Of a DNA stretch of 64,000 nucleotides, positions 17,626 to 63,650 are shown piece after piece. The translations under genes were made by a program, and so were the position numbers. Position 1 is the stretch's first letter. Each line of letters begins with the position of its first letter. The notes under the pieces were generated by a model, which searched no databases, was not told the origin of the DNA, and saw nothing but the letters and a program-made list of their open reading frames with translations. The stretch lies in the NCBI GenBank assembly GCA_014360655.1, contig JACIXC010000001.1:228715-292714 (forward strand), in the 5' to 3' direction. The stretch comes from Actinomycetota bacterium. Its GTDB lineage: Bacteria > Actinomycetota > Geothermincolia > Geothermincolales > RBG-13-55-18.

Positions 17626-19627
17626 GCTTAAGAAACTTCTTACCCCGCTGCGCATCAGGGATCTCGAGCTGCGCAACCGCATCGTGATGACCGCCATGCA
17701 CCTGAACTTCACGCCTGACGGCAGGGTGAACGACCGCATCGCGGCCTTCTACGAGGAACGGTCCAGGGGCGGAGCGGGCCTGATCATCGTGGGCGGTTGC
17801 ATCATCGACGACTACGCCGGCGCCTACTGGATGCTGGACATGCGCGACGACTCCTGCATCGAGGGCCACGCCATCCTCGCGGACGCCATCAAGAAGCACG
17901 GGGCGGCGGCGGCCTGCCAGCTCTACCACGCCGGGCGCTACTCGCATTCCGTTTCCATGGAAGGGAGGCAGGCGCTCGCTCCCAGCCCGGTGACCTCCCG
18001 CTTCACCAGGGAAGAGCCGCGGGGGATGACGCTGGAGGACATCAAGCGCACCGTGCAAGCTTACGCGGACGCGGCGCGGCGCGTGAAGGAAGCGGGTTAC
18101 GACATGGTGGAGGTGCTTGCCTGCACCGGCTACCTCATCTGCCAGTTCCTCTCGCCCATCACCAACCTGCGCGACGACGAGTACGGGGGCTCGTGGGAGA
18201 ACCGCATGCGCTTCGGGCTGGAGGTGGCAGACGCCGTGCGCGAGGCCGTGGGCCCCGCCTATCCCGTCTGCTTCCGCATCGCCGGGCACGACTACATGGA
18301 GGGCGGCAACACCAACCGCGAGTGGGCCCTCTTCGCCGCGGAACTGGAGAAACACGGCGTGGATCTCATCAACGTCACGGGCGGCTGGCACGAGACCAGG
18401 GTGCCCCAGCTCCCCATGTCCGTGCCCCGCGGCGGTCTCTCCTACCTGGCGGCGCACGTCAAGGAGAAGGTCACCGTCCCGGTGATCGCCTGTAACCGCA
18501 TCAACGACGTCTTCGTGGCCGACGAGATCCTGCGCATGGGGATGGCAGACCTGGTGGGCATGGCCCGCGCCCTCATCGCCGATCCCTACTTCCCCCAGAA
18601 GGCCATGGAGGAGAGGTACGAGGAGATCACCCACTGCATCGGCTGCAACCAGGGCTGTTTCGACCACGTCTTCTACCTGCAGCCCGTCACCTGTACGCTC
18701 AATCCGCGCGCCGGGCGCGAGCTGGAATACCGCGTGGAGAGGGCCCGCAAGCCCAAGAAGGTGGCCGTGGTGGGAGGGGGCCCCGCCGGAATGAAGGCGG
18801 CCCTCACCGCCGCCGAGCGCGGGCACCACGTCACCCTCTTCGAGAAGGGGGAGATGCTGGGAGGGCAGATGAACCTGGCGGCGGTACCTCCCGGTCGGGA
18901 GGAGTTCTGGACCGCGGTCGAGGACCTGGAGGCGCAGCTCGACAACGCGGGCGTGGAGTTGCGCCTGGAGACGGAGGCCGACGCCGCGACCCTGCGCGAG
19001 GAGGGTTTCGAGGCGGTGGTGGTGGCCACCGGTGCGCGCCAGGCCGTCCCGCCCATCCCCGGCATAGACCTGCCTCACGTGGCCATGGCCTGGGATATCC
19101 TGGAAGGCAAGGCGGACCCCGAGGGGAAGAACGTCGTGATCATCGGCGGCGGCGCGGTGGGATCGGAAACGGCTATGTACGTGGCCAGCATCGGCACCAT
19201 ATCTGGCGACACCCTCTTCTTCCTGTTCATGAACAACGGGGAGGACGTGGAAACCCTGCGCGAGCTGTGCGGCCGCGGCATAAAGCGGGTGACGGTGGTG
19301 GAGATGCTGGACAAGGTGTGCCGCGACGTGGGGCTTTCCACCCGCTGGACCATCCTGCAGGACATGCGCAACCTGGGCATCGACATACGCAGCACGGCGG
19401 TGGCGAAGCGCATCGAGAAGGACCGGGTCGTGGTGGAGGTGGACGGGAAAGAGGAGGAGATCCCCGCGGACACCGTGATCATCGCCGTGGGCTCCTGCCC
19501 GGCCGACGAGCTCTACCAGGAGCTCAAGGACAGCGGGATGGAGGTGTACGTGGTGGGCGACGCCAGGGAGGCGCGCAAGGCCATCGAGGCCATCCAGGAG
19601 GGATACGAGGCGGGCCTGCAGGTCTGA
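17626..19627 (+). CDS. Old-yellow-enzyme-family FMN oxidoreductase fused to FAD/NAD(P)-binding domain (2,4-dienoyl-CoA reductase FadH-like)
   Basis: OYE TIM-barrel region (MTAMHLNF, HAGRYSHS, CQFLSPITNLRDDEYGGS), 4Fe-4S Cys motif CIGCNQGCFDHV, and a C-terminal Rossmann region (VAVVGGGPAGMKAA, IIGGGAVGSETA). Probable TTG start near 17626. The ORF extends to 17555. Confidence 0.8.
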
Positions 19628-19637
19628 CCGGCGCGGG

Positions 19638-19700
19638 CCCGCTGGCTTATTTTCCCCGGGGATTTTTTCCCTGGGGATGTTTTTCCCCGGGGATTTTTTT
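19638..19700. terminator. Three tandem copies of TTTTCCCCGGGGATTTTTT-like hairpin/T-tract units between convergent genes (candidate bidirectional terminator)
   Basis: ttttccccggggattttttccctggggatgtttttccccggggatttttttcc lies directly after the stop at 19627 and before the convergent gene ending at 19892. Confidence 0.4.
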
Positions 19701-19891
19701 CCAACGGGATATGGAAGTACGTTCGCGAAGGATGGTTGCCCTGCCCTTCCGGCCCCTACCCCCTCTCTCCCGGCCCGGGGCCCGGGGCGGCTGTTTCGCC
19801 CGGCGGTCCATTGCGCGGGCCGCGGCCCGGGGAACGAGCGCCGTAGACCGTTTCCCGCAAGCGTGCGGGCTCCGCTGTGGATATGCCCCGG

Positions 19892-50878: not shown

Positions 50879-50914
50879 GGCGTCCGCCTCTCGGCTTGTC
50901 GCTTTCCCGGTCGT

Positions 50915-51000
50915 TCGCTTTCCGTGATGTTCGTTTTACGTGAAGTTCGTTTTGCGTGATGTTCGTTTTGCGTGATGTCTGCCCCGTGCGAGGTTCGCTT
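50915..51000. repeat. Degenerate ~16-bp tandem repeats (GTTCGTTTTGCGTGAT-like, at least four copies decaying 3')
   Basis: gatgttcgttttacgt / gaagttcgttttgcgt / gatgttcgttttgcgt / gatgtctgccccgtgc, then weaker copies. Located about 200 bp upstream of the bS22 gene. Confidence 0.6.
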
Positions 51001-51206: not shown

Positions 51207-51302
51207 GTGAGTTCGGTGGTGAAGAAGCGCCGCAAGAAGATGCGCAAGAAGAAGCACAAGAAACTCCTGAAGCGAACCCGCTGGCAGAGGCGGAACAAGT
51301 AG
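51207..51302 (+). CDS. Ribosomal protein bS22 (AURKAIP1/COX24-domain small basic protein), 31 aa, absent from the ORF track
   Basis: VSSVVKKRRKKMRKKKHKKLLKRTRWQRRNK closely matches mycobacterial bS22 ([33 protein letters not shown]). GTG start with an AAGAGGTGG SD 6 nt upstream. Confidence 0.75.
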   Translation: MSSVVKKRRKKMRKKKHKKLLKRTRWQRRNK

Positions 51303-51907: not shown

Positions 51908-53563
51908 GTGTCGCACATGAAGGATAAGGTCACGGGTCAAGCGGAGTCGCGCATGAAGAAACCGGGAATGCGGTTCATGGCAGCCCTCCTGGCCGCGCTC
52001 GCCCTGGCGGCGGCAGCCCCCCCTGTCCCGGGAAGAGCGGCGCAAGCGCCCTCGCTTCTCTTCCGCGTCGACCTTTCGGAAGGCGCGGTGGACTCGCTTT
52101 CGGTGACCCTCGAATTGGAAGGAGAATCCGGCGTGGCGGTGCTGCGCATGGAGGATTCCTACGGCGAGGGGCTGGCGGCCGACCTGTCCTCGCACGTCTG
52201 CGAGGAGAGGGCAACGGACGCTTCGGGGCGGGAGCTGCCCATACGCAGGGAGGGCAATACCTGGTACATGGAGCATGACGGCAAGGCCTCCTTCAGCTAC
52301 CGGGTGAGACTCTCCGGGTACGAGGCGGGCACCACATACATCTCGTCCCTGGCCGCGAGCGGCGCGCGCTGGCCCTACTTCCCCTTCCTGGAGGGCGACC
52401 TGGCCTACCTTCCCGGTTACGCCGTCTTCGTGCGGCCCGACCTCCCGCCGCAGACGCCGGTCGACCTGGAGGTGCTCCTCCCCGAGGGCTGGACGACGGC
52501 CGTCCCGCGCCGGGAGGGCCCGCACGAACTCGGGGAACTCCTCTCCGATCCCCTCCTCGCCGGGGAGATCACCGTGCTGGAGCGGGAAGGCCTCGTGCTG
52601 GCCCTTCCCTCCGCCTCCTCTCCCGCCGCGGGGACGCTCGAGGAATTCGCGGACAAGGTTGCCTCCGCCCTGGACCGCTTGCGGAGCGTGCTCGCGTCCG
52701 GCGGGGAGGCGTCCGGGGAAGCATCGCGGGACGGGGTGGTCCTTGTCGCGCTCCTGCGCGGCGAGGGCGACCGCGTGGAGGACGTGTTCTTCCTGCCGGA
52801 ACCCTTCAGCCACACCGCGGTGCTGGCGGCCCCCGCGGGCGTGGACATCCTCTCCGACGCCTGCCTGGAGGCCTCCGTGCGCGAGGCGGCCTCGCTCCTC
52901 CTGCGGCGCTCGCTATTACTGCAACCCGAGGCGAGGTGGTTGCTCGAGGGCGCCGCCTGGTACCTCCAGGGCCTGCTGCCCTACCGGGCGGGGACGTGGG
53001 GCGGCGCGCTCTTCTGGGACCGCTTCAGCCGGCGCTACCAGCTTTACCGGGAGGCCGCGGAGCGGAAGCCCGTTTCCCTCGCACAAGCCGGCTTCGAGGC
53101 CAACGCCGACGGGGATGCGGCCGCCGTCCTCATCTGCGGCGGCGCCGCTGCCTGCGCGGCGCTGGACGCCGAGCTCCACGCCCTGCAGCCGCAGGAACTC
53201 GATCTCGTATCGTTCCTCGCCCGCCTCGCCGAAATGGGCGGGGAGGAAGGCGGGCTGGGGAACGCGGACATCCGCTCGCTCCTCGAGACCCTGAGCGGGC
53301 GGGACTGGTCCTCGTTCTTCCGGGGCCACATCGAGGGAACGCGGGTGATCCCCGCCTCCGCCTTCTCCTCCCTGCGCGTCGCCGCAGAGGAGACACCGTC
53401 GCTCCCCACCCGGGGCAGCGGGGAATCCACCTCCGTCCCCGAGTGGATACTCCTGGCCGTCGCCGTGGCCCTGGTCCTGCTCATCCCCTTCCTCATGGAG
53501 CCCTACACCATGCGCCCGCGCAAGCCCGGCTTCCTGGAAAAGAAGCTGCGCGAGGAGGATTAG
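51908..53563 (+). CDS. Secreted, C-terminally membrane-anchored protein of unknown function, ending at an amber codon inside a tandem repeat
   Basis: Signal peptide (MRFMAALLAALALAAAAPPVPGRAAQA), an ~480-aa ectodomain, then the TM helix WILLAVAVALVLLIPFLM and a basic tail. The stop TAG at 53561 is the only difference from the CAG in the next two repeat copies. Confidence 0.6.
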   Translation: MSHMKDKVTGQAESRMKKPGMRFMAALLAALALAAAAPPVPGRAAQAPSLLFRVDLSEGAVDSLSVTLELEGESGVAVLRMEDSYGEGLAADLSSHVCEERATDASGRELPIRREGNTWYMEHDGKASFSYRVRLSGYEAGTTYISSLAASGARWPYFPFLEGDLAYLPGYAVFVRPDLPPQTPVDLEVLLPEGWTTAVPRREGPHELGELLSDPLLAGEITVLEREGLVLALPSASSPAAGTLEEFADKVASALDRLRSVLASGGEASGEASRDGVVLVALLRGEGDRVEDVFFLPEPFSHTAVLAAPAGVDILSDACLEASVREAASLLLRRSLLLQPEARWLLEGAAWYLQGLLPYRAGTWGGALFWDRFSRRYQLYREAAERKPVSLAQAGFEANADGDAAAVLICGGAAACAALDAELHALQPQELDLVSFLARLAEMGGEEGGLGNADIRSLLETLSGRDWSSFFRGHIEGTRVIPASAFSSLRVAAEETPSLPTRGSGESTSVPEWILLAVAVALVLLIPFLMEPYTMRPRKPGFLEKKLREED

Positions 53564-53803
53564 GCGTTTCTCCTGGCCGTCGCCGTGGCCCTGGTCCTGC
53601 TCATCCCCTTCCTCATGGAGCCCTACACCATGCGCCCGCGTAAGCCCGGCTTCCTCGAGAAGAAGCTGCGCGAGGAGGATCAGGCGTTTCTCCTGGCCGT
53701 CGCCGTGGTCCTGGTCCTGCTCATCCCCTTCCTCATGGAGCCCTACACCATGCGCTCGCGCAAGCCCGGCTTCCTGGAGAAGAAGCTGCGCGAGGAGGAT
53801 CAG
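53451..53803 (+). repeat. Perfect 120-bp tandem repeat x ~2.9 encoding a 40-aa TM-anchor module, in frame with the upstream CDS
   Basis: Copies at 53451, 53571 and 53691, period exactly 120 bp with 3-4 mismatches (TAG vs CAG vs CAG at the unit end). The in-frame ORF 53585..53899 continues through copies 2-3. Confidence 0.9.
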
Positions 53804-54323
53804 GCGGGGCAGGCCCCGAAGGTTGTGTCCAGGAGGGTGCCGCGAGGGCTTTTCCTACCGGGTGCGGCGGTCCCTGACCGGGGTGGTTCCGTGAACTGAA
53901 TTCTCTTGACTGTATGGTTACCTTGTGGTATCTTCTTTACGAGGGAATTGCGAGGTGAGCGGGCATAATGTCGACAAAAAGTGTGGCGGCGATAATGGGA
54001 GTTTTTTACAAACGTTTACGCGTTAATTGATCCGACCGCCGTGGGCGGTTGGACTTTTCATATCGGGCGCAGAGCGACAAAAAAAGGAGGCCAAGCGGGC
54101 GGACTTCACGAAAAGGGCGGAAGAGGGGCGAAAAGAGCTCGGCGTTTTCCTCCAGGGGAATCCAAGGGGAAGTCTTCAGGGCTCACTCGGCGTAGACATC
54201 GAGGCAGACCTCTCGGCATGAAAGCACTTTGCCATCGTCCATTCCTCTTTCCTCGCGAAGTCCTTCCACCGGCCGCAGAGGCGCACCCGGCCCGCGCGGC
54301 CGGAATAAAGAGGTTGAAGGAGG

Positions 54324-56126
54324 TTGCGGCGGATGAAAAGAAGCGCTAGGTGGGTAGTCTTTATCTCCATCCTCACCCTCCTCGCCGGGTTCCTTCTGAC
54401 GGGTTCCGTGCTGGTGCTCGCGGAGGGCGAAGAGGGAACCGCAGGCGGGGATGGGACCGGGGTTTCGGCCACGGAAGCCCCTATCGACACCACGGGCATG
54501 TCCAAGACGGGCGTGATAGAGGCGGTGGTGTGGGATGACTTCATAATAGAGGAGGTCTCGGACCCCGCGCAGGAGGGCATCAACGGCGTCACCGTCGAGC
54601 TTTACGTCCAGGACAAGAGCGGCGAGTGGAAGCTCTGGGGGAGCAAGGTGACCGGGGGCGGGGTTTCCACTACCCTTAAGGCCATTCCTTACGGCTTTGT
54701 GCAATGGAAAGAGCTCCCCGTGACGGTCGACTTAACAACCACTACCAAGTACAAGCTGAAACTGGTCTGCGACGAGGACATCGAGCCCCTGAACGGCGAC
54801 GAGAGGATCGTGCCCCTCAATGTCAGCAACTGGTGGAACTGCCGCTACCTCGAAGTAAGCGACAAGAACAAGAGGCAAGCCCTGGAGGTCGACGGCGTCT
54901 CCCTGCTGACGGAAGACGTCGGCTTCATCGAGGCGGTGGTGTGGGACGACGCCATCCTCGAAGACACCACGGACTCCTGCTCCGAGGGGATCAACGGCAT
55001 CACCGTGAACCTGTACCGGAAGAACAGGGACGGCGGATGGGACCTCTACGGCAGCAAGGTGACCGGAGCCGGGGGCTATTCCAAGCTCGTGCCCTACGGC
55101 TGGGTGGGCTGGAACAACCTGCCGGTGGTGAAGGACATACGCGCGACCACCCAGTATAAGCTGGAGCTGGTGACCAACGACACCTTCCAGGCCCTGAACG
55201 GCACCGAGAGGATCGTCAGGTTGAACGTCACCAACAACTACTTCCGCTGGTTCTTCGAGGTGGCCGACGACGCCGACCTGCGCGCCTTCGAGATAAGGAG
55301 CATCTCGGCCCTCCCCGTGGAGAACATCGGAAGGATCGAGGCCATGGTCTGGGACGACGCGGTGCTCCCCAAGGAGACGAACTCCCGCATGGAAGGCGTG
55401 GACGACATCATCGTCAACCTCTACAAGAAGGACGAGAACGGCGAGTGGCAGTTCTACGACAGCCAGAGCACCCACGCCGGGGGCTTCATCTGGCGCGCCG
55501 AGCACGGCTGGGTGGGCTGGGACAGCCTCCCGGTGACGGCCGACCTGCGCGTGAAGACCTACTATAAGCTGGAGATCATAACCGACCAGACTTTCAACCC
55601 GGTGGGCAGCACGGAGAGGATCATCTCGCTGGATTCCTCGAACCTCTGGTACCGCTGGTATTTCGAGGTGGCCGACAGCGCCGACCTCCAGGCCTTCCGC
55701 ATCCAGTCCACCACCGTTCTCATCTCCGGCACGGTGTGGCACGACATGAACGCCAACCTGGCGAGGGACTTCTATGAGCCGACGTGCGAGGGCTGGACGG
55801 TGATGCTCACCGACAGGTACGGGAGGAAAGTGGCCACGAAAACGACCAACAAGTGGGGTTACTACCAGTTCCGCGGCCTGAAACCCGGTACCTACAAGGT
55901 CTGGGTGAAGGATGCCCGGGGCTGGAACCAGACCTGTCCCTTCTACAAGCTGTGCACCTGGCCGCCGTACGGTTACAACAAGGGGCACTATGTCATCAAC
56001 GGCCAGGCCGGCAAGTACTACATCAACAAGAACTTCGGGATGCTGGACATGGACGGAACACTCCTTGCTCCCGTTGTTTACAGCCTCTGGTGGGTAGGGC
56101 TGTTGGCATACCAACTGATACCCTGA
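54324..56126 (+). CDS. Cell-surface protein with N-terminal anchor/signal, three ~135-aa internal repeats and a C-terminal Cna-B/SdrD-B-like domain
   Basis: Repeats start IEAVVWDDFIIEE, IEAVVWDDAILED and IEAMVWDDAVLPK, and each ends ...FEVADxADLxAF.I.S. The C-terminal region TVWHDMNANLARDFYEPTCEGWTVMLTDRYGRKVATKTTNKWGYYQFRGLKPGTYKVWV is prealbumin-like. Hydrophobic C-terminus. Confidence 0.6.
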   Translation: MRRMKRSARWVVFISILTLLAGFLLTGSVLVLAEGEEGTAGGDGTGVSATEAPIDTTGMSKTGVIEAVVWDDFIIEEVSDPAQEGINGVTVELYVQDKSGEWKLWGSKVTGGGVSTTLKAIPYGFVQWKELPVTVDLTTTTKYKLKLVCDEDIEPLNGDERIVPLNVSNWWNCRYLEVSDKNKRQALEVDGVSLLTEDVGFIEAVVWDDAILEDTTDSCSEGINGITVNLYRKNRDGGWDLYGSKVTGAGGYSKLVPYGWVGWNNLPVVKDIRATTQYKLELVTNDTFQALNGTERIVRLNVTNNYFRWFFEVADDADLRAFEIRSISALPVENIGRIEAMVWDDAVLPKETNSRMEGVDDIIVNLYKKDENGEWQFYDSQSTHAGGFIWRAEHGWVGWDSLPVTADLRVKTYYKLEIITDQTFNPVGSTERIISLDSSNLWYRWYFEVADSADLQAFRIQSTTVLISGTVWHDMNANLARDFYEPTCEGWTVMLTDRYGRKVATKTTNKWGYYQFRGLKPGTYKVWVKDARGWNQTCPFYKLCTWPPYGYNKGHYVINGQAGKYYINKNFGMLDMDGTLLAPVVYSLWWVGLLAYQLIP

Positions 56127-62538: not shown

Positions 62539-63333
62539 ATGAAAGACCGCGAATCTTTACATAAATTGGCAGCCAAGGGCGACCTGCGGGGGCTGGTGGA
62601 GGCCATGGGCCACCCGCAACCCTACATGCGGCTGACCGCTTCCGACCTCCTGGCCGCGCAGGGCGAAAAGTCCTTCCCCTTCCTCGTGGAGGCCCTCACG
62701 CACGATAACCCGGACGTGCGCAAGGGGGCCGCCCGCTCCCTGGGCCTCATCGGCGACCGGCGCGCCGTCCGCCATCTCCTGGACCGCCTGGAAAAGGAAA
62801 CCCCGGGCGTGGGCCAGTTCATCGTGGACGCGCTGGCGGACATCGGGGACGTCCACGTGGTTCCGGATCTCTGCAGGACCACGCGCAGCCACAGCCTTTC
62901 CCTCCGCTACAGCGCGGTAAGGGCGCTGGGTAAGCTGGGGGACCGGCGCGCCATCCCCTATCTCATCGAGGCCCTGGGGGATTCGGCGAGCATCGTGAGG
63001 CTGCGTGCGGTGGAATCACTCGGCGGCATGGGCGAGCCGACCCTTTGGGTCCCCGTGAGCGAGATGCTCGCCGACGAGTCGGCGGGAGTCAGGGCGGTCG
63101 CCGCCCGCGCCCTCGGAGAGATGCACGCCCTGCGCGCCATCGACTGCCTCCTTCCCCTGCTGCAAAGCGACGTGGAAAGCGACGTCCTGGAGGCCGTAAA
63201 AGCCCTGGGGAGGATCGGCAGCAAGAGGGCCGTGGAGCCGCTGCTCGCCACCCGCGAAAGGGAGGGGCGGGAGAGGGTGCTGATGGCAATCGAGGCGGCA
63301 CTCGAGGCCATCGGCGAGGCGAGCCAGGAATAA
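62539..63333 (+). CDS. HEAT-repeat (PBS-lyase type) protein
   Basis: 264 aa with six units of the DxxVRxxAARxLGxIGDxRAVxxL pattern. Confidence 0.8.
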   Translation: MKDRESLHKLAAKGDLRGLVEAMGHPQPYMRLTASDLLAAQGEKSFPFLVEALTHDNPDVRKGAARSLGLIGDRRAVRHLLDRLEKETPGVGQFIVDALADIGDVHVVPDLCRTTRSHSLSLRYSAVRALGKLGDRRAIPYLIEALGDSASIVRLRAVESLGGMGEPTLWVPVSEMLADESAGVRAVAARALGEMHALRAIDCLLPLLQSDVESDVLEAVKALGRIGSKRAVEPLLATREREGRERVLMAIEAALEAIGEASQE

Positions 63334-63384
63334 TCCCCTGTCGGCGCGCCCTTGCGCGGGGCGGCAAGAGCGTGACCGCGGCGG

Positions 63385-63650
63385 GAAGGGGTCTTGCGGC
63401 GTCGACGGGTCGGTCCCCACCTCGCATCCCGCCACCTGTCCCATAACGCTCTCCCTGCGGGGCGCGACGGCGGTGGCGAGCAACGTAGTGATGAAGCGGA
63501 ATTTCCCGCCCACCGGGAAGGGGTCTTGCGGCGTCGACGGGTCGGTCCCCACCTCGCATCCCGCCACCTGTCCCATAACGCTCTCCCTGCGGGGCGCGAC
63601 GGCGGTGGCGAGCAACGTAGTGATGAAGCGGAATTTCCCGCCCACCGGTT
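63385..63650. repeat. 133-bp perfect tandem duplication immediately upstream of hup
   Basis: gaaggggtcttgcggcgtcgacggg...gaatttcccgcccaccgg occurs twice back-to-back, then a T-rich tract and the hup SD. Confidence 0.85.

Follow-up and report, generated by a model that had tools for sequence, protein, structure and literature searches.

The 3' end of one gene in this Actinomycetota genome is followed directly by two further copies of itself, and the frame that continues past the gene's TAG codon remains open through both. The question raised by this arrangement is whether the TAG is a recent nonsense mutation, a codon that is read through, or simply the end of the gene. The locus lies in a stretch of 64,000 nucleotides, referred to here as the window, and was presented in the original prediction as a perfect in-frame 120-bp triplication of a transmembrane (TM) anchor module with an amber codon terminating the first copy. 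The main value of the present analysis is a correction of that picture: the amber codon is the ancestral stop, the protein has one anchor as in all of its relatives, and H5T73_01130, a hypothetical protein annotated across the downstream copies, is probably spurious.

The repeat structure can be read directly from the DNA. Tandem Repeats Finder (TRF) reported a three-copy tandem array at 53450-53806 (period 120, 3.0 copies, 96% matches, no indels, score 672), an identity far above chance expectation, and per-base comparison together with TRF placed the copies head to tail without intervening DNA, as in a tandem duplication. The predicted copy number and period were thus borne out, but the copies are not perfect; pairwise identity between them is 94-97% over 120 bp. 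The repeated segment is indeed the gene's 3' end, measured as the last 37 codons (LLAVAVALVLLIPFLMEPYTMRPRKPGFLEKKLREED) plus the stop codon and 6 nt rather than the last 40 codons. The TAG of copy 1, the CAG in its place in copies 2 and 3, and the frame open to 53899 were all confirmed (Table 1). The TAG/CAG change had been described as the only difference at the unit boundary; instead, the unit's final three bases are TTT in copies 1 and 2 and GGG in copy 3, and there are six substitutions in total across the three copies, besides the differing sequence past the last one. Copies 1 and 2 differ at four positions, of which three are synonymous (C/T at 53521/53641, G/C at 53536/53656 and A/G at 53539/53659) and the fourth is the T/C of the stop codon. 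Copy 3 has two private C>T substitutions, both non-synonymous. At the junctions, a 3-nt TTT takes the place of the ATA found in the native upstream sequence. No inverted repeats able to explain a slippage hotspot were found in 53380-53920, and a search of 53300-54500 against Rfam gave no match at E <= 1.

Table 1. Coordinates of the features at the repeat locus (positions in the window).
Feature	Position	Strand	Remarks
M61_N-like protein gene, 536 aa, MBC7246366.1 / H5T73_01125	51953..53563 including stop	+	100% match to P0001
Repeat copy 1	53450..53569	+	Genuine gene 3' end (37 codons + TAG) and 6-nt GCGTTT junction
Gene stop TAG, functional and by comparison ancestral	53561..53563	+	Stop at this codon in 6/6 distinct orthologous loci
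Repeat copy 2	53570..53689	+	Putative untranslated relic; former stop is CAG 53681-53683; private synonymous-type changes 53641, 53656
104-aa ORF, GenBank hypothetical protein H5T73_01130 / MBC7246367.1	53585..53899	+	Identical to P0019; PGAP-annotated
Repeat copy 3	53690..53806	+	Putative untranslated relic; former stop is CAG 53801-53803; private Ala>Val 53709, Pro>Ser 53756
Original non-coding 3' flank (putative)	53804..53905	+	Read by the originally predicted open frame up to the in-frame stop TGA 53897-53899

The host gene starts, according to NCBI, at the ATG at 51953 and not at the GTG at 51908 used previously. In its product, an N-terminus like that of a signal peptide precedes an M61_N domain and a degenerate MA-type domain, and a single C-terminal TM helix is followed by a conserved cytoplasmic tail. 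It resembles peptidase family M61 (glycyl aminopeptidase) in its N-terminal domain, which scored above the Pfam threshold (PF17899, E = 7e-6, 26.6 bits vs a cut-off of 23), and in a distant match of the family profile to the M61 structures 8j9c and 8j9d (E = 3e-6); the catalytic domain PF05299 scored below threshold (17 bits vs a cut-off of 22). In contrast to M61, the family has no HExxH zinc motif, since the region that aligns with the HEFNH of 8j9c holds no conserved His and no His is invariant in the 17-sequence family alignment, and it has its own C-terminal TM anchor and tail. The tail, IPFxxEPYTMxPRKPGFL, follows one TM helix in 18/18 homologues (509-540 aa), all of which terminate 6-12 residues past PRKPGFL. 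Neither the protein nor the module matched NCBIfam, and the module is therefore not a catalogued sorting signal. The unusual conservation of the tail within the family may merit attention as more genomes of the clade appear. An exhaustive profile search of 1.84 billion representatives found the module confined to this protein family, P0019 and one possibly chimeric 683-bp scaffold. A word-indexed protein search with an alignment of the 40-aa module gave no match at E <= 10, a result probably due to the short length and hydrophobicity of the query.

Position and identity of the stop codon were read directly from orthologous loci. The codon is TAG in five of the six distinct loci (L001, L002, L003-5, L006 and L010) and TGA in the sixth (L007-9), and in L012, a contig from a sister lineage, TAG closes both copies of a duplicated module. 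Because the single-copy orthologues stop at the same codon, mostly with TAG, and L012 has TAG in both copies, the TAG is ancestral; the CAG found in copies 2 and 3 is then a derived T>C change, in DNA that would already have been untranslated. The polarity of the copy differences, set with L002 and L001 as outgroups, agrees: the ancestral base at 53561 is T, and each copy has codons of its own, namely GAA in copy 1, CGT and CTC in copy 2, and GTC and TCG in copy 3. A very recent triplication followed by a C-to-T nonsense mutation had been proposed. The triplication stands, but the mutation would have run in the opposite direction, and "very recent" does not suit copies that each bear one or two private substitutions. 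Comparison of orthologous loci, suggested earlier as a check, also speaks against a new nonsense codon, given that the 18 homologues all end at this position. An alternative order would begin with loss of the stop, continue with in-frame duplication on two occasions and end with a C>T reversion in copy 1. As it would need four events, two of them probably deleterious, it is less parsimonious and was set aside as less likely.

Two contigs from other assemblies provide the closest comparisons. The first (L011, ENA ERZ1761209, JX_farmland), a separately assembled 700-bp contig, corresponds to window positions 53546-54245 at 697/700 identity, and this second assembly directly reproduces the TAG, both GCGTTT junctions, both CAGs, the CTC of copy 2 and both private variants of copy 3. 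Its copy 2 carries 3 further differences from the window, and its copy 3 is identical. The second, L012, is a JGI contig in which the period is 128 and the second copy is out of frame. Its copies are identical at 77/77 positions in a direct comparison at offset 128; TRF reported no array on this contig, which holds 1.6 copies only. One module copy is seen directly in each of L001-L010, which represent the six distinct and more distant loci, at least two are present in the closer relative L012, and three are present in the window and in L011, which reproduces copy 2, copy 3 and the flank. Copy number thus varies among relatives with a single copy as the ancestral state, as in VNTR-type loci.

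The two arrays are not built alike. The junction of the window, GCGTTT, has 6 nt and that of L012 has 19 nt. Within each genome the copies have lineage-specific substitutions in common (ATG and CGC in the window vs CTG and CGG in L012), a pattern that would fit either gene conversion or independent events. An alignment of the two junctions (CGT..TCT..CC-GG, with 8 nt of gaps) may hint at a common origin but is not decisive. That the same gene end is duplicated with another junction and period points to a local hotspot, or else to an old duplication whose copies gene conversion has kept alike. A neutral accident on a single occasion does not account for it, and a gene end that is duplicated recurrently, or persistently with homogenisation, in a sister lineage may merit attention. 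Scans of JGI metagenome contigs for the exact junction, and for the unit end with either stop state, each gave 0 matches.

Downstream of the TAG, copies 2 and 3 look like unconstrained and presumably untranslated relics. Copy 3 has Ser in place of a Pro that is invariant in 17/17 aligned homologues, and copy 2 of L011 has a Val>Glu change within the TM segment; these changes argue for relaxed constraint on the extra copies. The flank beyond copy 3 is 73% identical to the one that follows the last copy of L012, with one 12-nt and three 1-nt indels, and because the indels shift the frame no reading frame is conserved in it. It could not be aligned to the flanks of L002 or L001. The frame past copy 3 spans 31 codons; a random frame of this length is stop-free 56% of the time at the 65% GC of the window, and this open stretch is uninformative. 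Other features that might be held against a relic reading are that both downstream copies lack stops, leaving 111 codons open, that the period is a multiple of 3 and that, in the window, both private changes of copy 2 are synonymous. All three are compatible with chance, with a chance level of 1/3 for the period, the 56% given above for the tail, and very small numbers of substitutions.

Taken together, the array is probably the product of ordinary tandem duplication, in two rounds, of the 3' end of the M61_N-like gene, with the extra copies lying in untranslated DNA. Besides the native TAG and 3 nt of 3' flank, the duplicated segment would hold the codons for the TM helix and for the conserved cytoplasmic tail, and it would have been placed directly 3' of the stop. 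In the most parsimonious order of events, a first duplication would have left the 3-nt TTT at the junction, a neutral T>C would then have changed the now meaningless stop of the downstream copy, and the 120-bp segment consisting of GCGTTT, the unit and CAG would have been duplicated in turn, which accounts for the two CAGs and for the identical pair of junctions. Each copy would then have gained one or two private substitutions. Slipped or illegitimate recombination, or end-joining with filler, could have produced these duplications. Translation would end at the first TAG to give a protein with one TM anchor, and copies 2 and 3 would lengthen the interval from the stop to the next promoter by 240 nt; a promoter-like site is present at 53906-53934, downstream of both copies. 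The array's neighbours are a DUF763 gene, a bS22-like ORF and an SdrD_B-domain gene. At a distance of 10 kb there is a second long tandem duplication (132 bp x 2), bordered by CGG microhomology. It is intergenic, and such duplications therefore occur outside coding modules in this genome.

Other explanations of the array were weighed against this one. An assembly artefact, in which a repeat was collapsed or expanded or strain variants were stitched in tandem, had been raised at the outset, and it would draw on the window's derivation from a MAG, on another long tandem duplication on the same contig that is 100% perfect, and on the fact that contigs L011 and L012 both break within the repeat. 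It is nevertheless very unlikely, because L011 has the same TAG, junctions, CAGs and copy-3 variants in a separate assembly with a different naming scheme; in addition, L012 has an analogous duplication and the copies can be told apart by their substitutions. Periods of 120 and 132 bp could also, in principle, be resolved with long k-mers from 150-bp reads. It is harder still to credit copies 2 and 3 with a separate small membrane protein, either the 104-aa H5T73_01130 or a shorter product started at an internal ATG, that arose by partial gene duplication. The ORF exists, is annotated by NCBI and is also found in L011, where it is called as 108 aa. However, its GTG start at 53585 is preceded by no Shine-Dalgarno-like sequence on reading, its counterpart in L012 is a 32-aa fragment ending in TAG, its tail is not conserved in frame, and the Pro>Ser and Val>Glu changes are non-conservative. 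Homologues were limited to the ORF itself and the fragments from L011 and L012, all from the same locus, and a P0019 query returned itself alone. H5T73_01130 is most likely a spurious call across copies 2 and 3 and the flank.

Readthrough of the TAG, at least in part, by an amber suppressor, pyrrolysine or programmed readthrough would yield three TM modules and a 32-aa tail, and had been offered in the original prediction together with a phase-variable number of anchors. The frame that is open from the TAG to 53899, the period divisible by 3 and the unusual conservation of TAG as the family's stop would suit it, but the remaining evidence makes it exceedingly improbable. TAG is not avoided as an ordinary stop in the window, where it ends 13/43 GC3-supported predicted genes (~30%), including the DUF763 gene. 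Sequences past the stop are not conserved as protein: the extensions are unrelated among orthologues, L003 and L010 have a second in-frame stop after 1-2 codons, the out-of-frame copy in L012 leads the post-TAG frame into nonsense sequence, and the tail has frameshifting indels relative to L012. The invariant proline is lost in copy 3, and a readthrough product would place a positively charged loop outside the membrane, which breaks the positive-inside rule. No tRNA gene is present within the 64-kb window; no protein with two or more modules was found among ~5.8 billion clusters, and the best coverage of the readthrough query by any database protein does not exceed 83%. The inverted topology that was envisaged for three TM helices has no substrate, because the protein ends after one helix. 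A recombinational switch or reservoir, or a selected hotspot of 3'-end duplication, is also quite unlikely, even though 94-97% identity over 120 bp is sufficient for homologous recombination, a second lineage shows duplication of this gene end with another junction, and the copies within each genome share substitutions. Within the 120-bp unit the TAG occupies offset 112-114, and unequal recombination of copy 1 with copy 2 or 3 would delete it in nearly all cases, leaving two TM modules, or one TM module and a 32-aa tail. These predicted products lack family-conserved features, however, and searches of 5.8 billion protein clusters and of JGI metagenome contigs revealed no allele that had contracted or lost the stop. 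Both assemblies of the strain have equal copy number, L011 showing the same copy 2, copy 3 and flank at the level of assembled contigs, and a deletion would be irreversible and not true phase variation. Phase-variable loci have repeats in a coding or promoter region, whereas copies 2 and 3 lie past a functional stop. The differently built arrays of two related lineages (120 bp x 3 with CAG and 128 bp in at least two copies with TAG) leave a slim chance that this gene end is a lineage-specific hotspot or a selected site of duplication, with the array as a possible recombinational reservoir.

Among known systems, tandem duplication of the gene end most resembles the short, minisatellite or VNTR-type tandem duplications that arise by slipped misalignment, illegitimate recombination or end-joining, with a head-to-tail unit of about 120 bp and copy numbers of one, at least two and three. 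It differs in the 3-nt TTT at the junction, in place of microhomology, and in a unit that is the gene's own 3' end including the stop, so that the array lies just outside the coding region. The MIRU-VNTR arrays of Actinobacteria are likewise tandem, with units of tens to about 100 bp, and lie between co-oriented genes with open frames that abut the codons of flanking genes; MIRUs insert at start codons as repeats with a coupled ORF (PMC12548453). They are, however, dispersed and apparently mobile, with a consensus shared by many loci, whereas the unit described here comes from the adjacent gene and occurs in the window at this locus only. A second gene 3' end downstream of an intact gene is also reminiscent of attachment-site duplication by integrative elements, but there is no integrase or element DNA between or beside the copies, which abut with a 6-nt junction. 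Programmed amber readthrough and pyrrolysine decoding share with this locus an in-frame TAG followed by an open, protein-like frame; here TAG is a common stop, the extension is unconserved and no decoding machinery is found in the 64-kb window. Duplication of a gene end past its stop can thus mimic a signal of recoding or readthrough in a GC-rich genome, and the array is best seen as an ordinary tandem duplication, not a case of recoding or a topology switch.

Tandem duplication at the 3' end of the M61_N-like membrane-protein gene (the host gene) was analyzed with Tandem Repeats Finder, which returned a period of 120, 3.0 copies, 96% matches, no indels and a score of 672. Together with a per-copy comparison, this bears out the three-copy structure of the original prediction, but its description of the repeat as perfect was an overstatement, as there are substitutions among the copies. 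Translated in the host-gene frame, copy 1 reads (W)ILLAVAVALVLLIPFLMEPYTMRPRKPGFLEKKLREED and then stops, copy 2 reads AFLLAVAVALVLL...REEDQ, and copy 3 reads AFLLAVAVVLVLL...MRSRKPGF...REEDQ. Translation likewise confirmed that the unit ends with TAG in copy 1 and with CAG in copies 2 and 3, and that the frame stays open past copy 3 until a TGA. The 31 stop-free codons 3' of copy 3 carry no weight, because the chance of an equally long stretch being open in the window is 56%. Three synonymous sites, plus the T/C of the stop, distinguish copy 1 from copy 2; copy 3 alone carries two further C>T changes, one at 53709 (Ala>Val) and one at 53756 (Pro>Ser). GCGTTT is found at both junctions, where TTT replaces the ATA of the native upstream sequence.

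Features of the array and its surroundings, in window positions.
Feature	Position	Remark
Palindromic-unit tandem repeat	19650-19710	TTTTCCCCGGGGATT, 15-16 bp, 3.3-3.9 copies; adjoining ORF ends at 19627
16-bp tandem repeat	50913-50978	GTTCGTTTTGCGTGAT, 4.1 copies, intergenic, past the DUF763 gene
31-codon ORF	51207-51302	VSSVVKKRRKKMRKKKHKKLLKRTRWQRRNK, with AAGAGGTG upstream
Host gene	51953-53563	ATG start as used by NCBI
Tandem array	53450-53806	
TAG, copy 1	53561-53563	
ORF H5T73_01130	53585-53899	104 aa, GenBank
CAG, copy 2	53681-53683	
CAG, copy 3	53801-53803	
Closing TGA	53897-53899	
Leader of SdrD_B gene	53900-54323	
Promoter-like site	53906-53934	TTGACT-17-TATCTT with TG
20-codon ORF	53968-54030	MSTKSVAAIMGVFYKRLRVN; Shine-Dalgarno GAGGTGAG
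Hairpin with T-run	54031-54063	
SdrD_B-domain protein	54324-56126	600 aa
HEAT-repeat gene	62539-63333	flanks 132-bp duplication
132-bp tandem duplication	63382-63648	2.0 copies, 100% identical, intergenic
HU-family gene	starts 63731	flanks 132-bp duplication

Homologues and orthologous DNA were compared to polarize the stop codon. The 18 homologues, 509-540 aa long and 44-100% identical, all terminate 6-12 residues past PRKPGFL, and none of them covers more than 83% of a three-module query. In the six distinct orthologous loci (L001, L002, L003-5, L006, L007-9 and L010), the module is present once and the stop is at the identical position; it is TGA in L007-9 and TAG in the other five. Protein identity is 72% for L001 and 78% for L002, the latter being syntenic with the same SdrD_B gene next. 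Sequence beyond the stop is unrelated from locus to locus, and L003 and L010 have another in-frame stop one or two codons after the first. Since orthologues stop at the same place, mostly with TAG, TAG in copy 1 is ancestral as the stop, and CAG, which copies 2 and 3 have instead, is derived. The orthologous loci thus gave a single copy and a conserved stop, and they did not sustain the proposed C-to-T nonsense mutation; the change ran the other way, from T to C. The use of TAG in five of six loci can also be set against its use in only ~30% of genes in the window; its predominance among the orthologues is probably due to inheritance.

With L002 and L001 as outgroups, all differences among copies other than the T/C of the stop are private to a single copy (GAA in copy 1, CGT and CTC in copy 2, GTC and TCG in copy 3). 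Copies 2 and 3 are sisters in the copy tree, (1,(2,3)), and each of the three copies has one or two private changes. Three events would make up the simplest history: duplication of the gene end with its stop and 3 nt of flank, a T>C change in the untranslated downstream copy, and duplication of the 120-bp segment GCGTTT-unit-CAG.

The original prediction had allowed that the array is an assembly artefact or that the stop is read through. The 90% cluster of the H5T73_01130 ORF has two further members, P0033 and P0032, each on a contig of its own. P0033 lies on the 700-bp ENA contig JX_farmland_Scaff12477678 (L011), which is identical to window 53546-54245 at 697 of 700 positions. It contains, in order, the last part of copy 1 including TAG, GCGTTT, copy 2 with CTC, CAG, the next junction, copy 3 with its two private variants, and the flank. 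Copy 2 holds the three mismatches, each a change to A and each no more than 96 nt from the contig end, so they may be errors; one of them, if real, would turn Val into Glu within the TM segment. An artefact is unlikely because this second assembly reproduces the array, both junctions and CAG included, even though its sample may coincide with that of the MAG. P0032 lies on the JGI contig Ga0495054_023274 (L012), a nearer relative than L002, as the leader of its SdrD_B gene is 88% identical to that of the window, compared to 76% for L002. This contig starts within a copy and continues with ...GATTAG, 19 nt (CCGTCTAGTCATCTATCCC), a second copy, GATTAG and a flank homologous to the window's. Its copies, spaced 128 nt apart, are identical at 77 of 77 positions. 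This period is not divisible by three, the second copy does not share the frame of the gene, and TAG is kept in both; this supports the notion that such copies do not code for protein and that TAG was the original stop of the last one. At the sites where all window copies have ATG and CGC, both L012 copies as well as L002 and L001 show CTG (or CTC) and CGG. Either the module was duplicated separately in each lineage, at what would then be a local hotspot, or it was duplicated long ago and homogenized by gene conversion; alignment of the junctions is compatible with both.

As for readthrough, TAG is an ordinary stop in the window, terminating 13 of the 43 ORFs supported by codon-position GC, and no tRNA gene was found in the 64 kb. 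A family-invariant proline is replaced in copy 3. The flank at 53804-53899, through which the open frame runs, is 73% identical to that of L012, the closest relative, with one 12-nt and three 1-nt indels that leave no reading frame intact between them; L002 and L001 have no sequence alignable to it. By reading, no Shine-Dalgarno-like sequence precedes H5T73_01130, and database searches found no homologue of it beyond the array locus. Copies 2 and 3 are therefore most likely neither constrained nor translated, as judged from sequence comparison. The features examined speak against amber recoding, as TAG is a frequent stop and conservation is lacking downstream of it.

The host protein matches MBC7246366.1 (H5T73_01125) at 100% identity; this entry comes from a 369-kb contig of a MAG that bears the label Actinobacteria bacterium. 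The 31-codon ORF upstream of the gene matches Pfam PF08213 (COX24_C, E = 1e-8) and looks like the actinobacterial ribosomal protein bS22, which fits this label. In the host protein, the Pfam M61 N-terminal domain scored above threshold and the M61 catalytic domain below it; the family profile reached M61 structures 8j9c and 8j9d (E = 3e-6). It is probably not a zinc peptidase, since the HEFNH zinc motif of 8j9c aligns opposite a region without a conserved histidine and the family alignment has no invariant His. By reading, the N-terminus (MKKPGMRFMAALLAALALAAAAPPVPGRAAQA) is signal-peptide-like and ILLAVAVALVLLIPFLM resembles a TM helix. The family's longest invariant block is the tail past this helix, PF..EPYTM.PR(K)PGFL. 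This cytoplasmic tail, IPFxxEPYTMxPRKPGFL (window 53444-53560, P0001-P0018), is also the most conserved block of a family otherwise 44-78% identical, and may serve in partner binding or sorting. Neither Pfam nor NCBIfam has a model for the tail, and NCBIfam has none for the 40-aa module. Against 1.84 billion representatives, the module profile matched only the host family, its fragments and one 139-aa product. The module is an anchor specific to this family and not a general sorting signal. That product (P0022, on the 683-bp ENA scaffold ERZ23498365, L013) has the TM and EPYTMRPRKPGFL module behind a membrane segment of unrelated sequence at its N-terminus; the scaffold may be chimeric, or the module genuinely transferred.

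No inverted repeats or Rfam families were found in the array region. L002 and L012 conserve the leader of the SdrD_B gene at 76-88%, and both have an ORF of equal length and the same hairpin. The leader has no Rfam match; 53906-54063 may be a leader peptide/attenuator or a small RNA. The SdrD_B-domain protein has 737 aa in L012 (724-2937) and 476 aa in L002 (2557-3987), and in the window it has, by reading, three internal repeats of ~120 aa each. Variable repeat number thus seems common in the neighbourhood of the host gene. The anchor module is not alone in this genome in having undergone long tandem duplication, as the 132-bp duplication, with 3-nt CGG microhomology at its borders, lies in intergenic DNA.

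We consider it quite probable that the array is a real tandem duplication of the gene's 3' end beyond the ancestral stop, untranslated and neutral, with the sister-lineage duplication either recurrent or ancient. It differs from a contingency locus in lying outside the coding region, from MIRU repeats (PMC12548453) in not being dispersed, and from att-site duplication in having no element between the copies. The array falls within the definition of a simple tandem duplication, or VNTR-type repeat.
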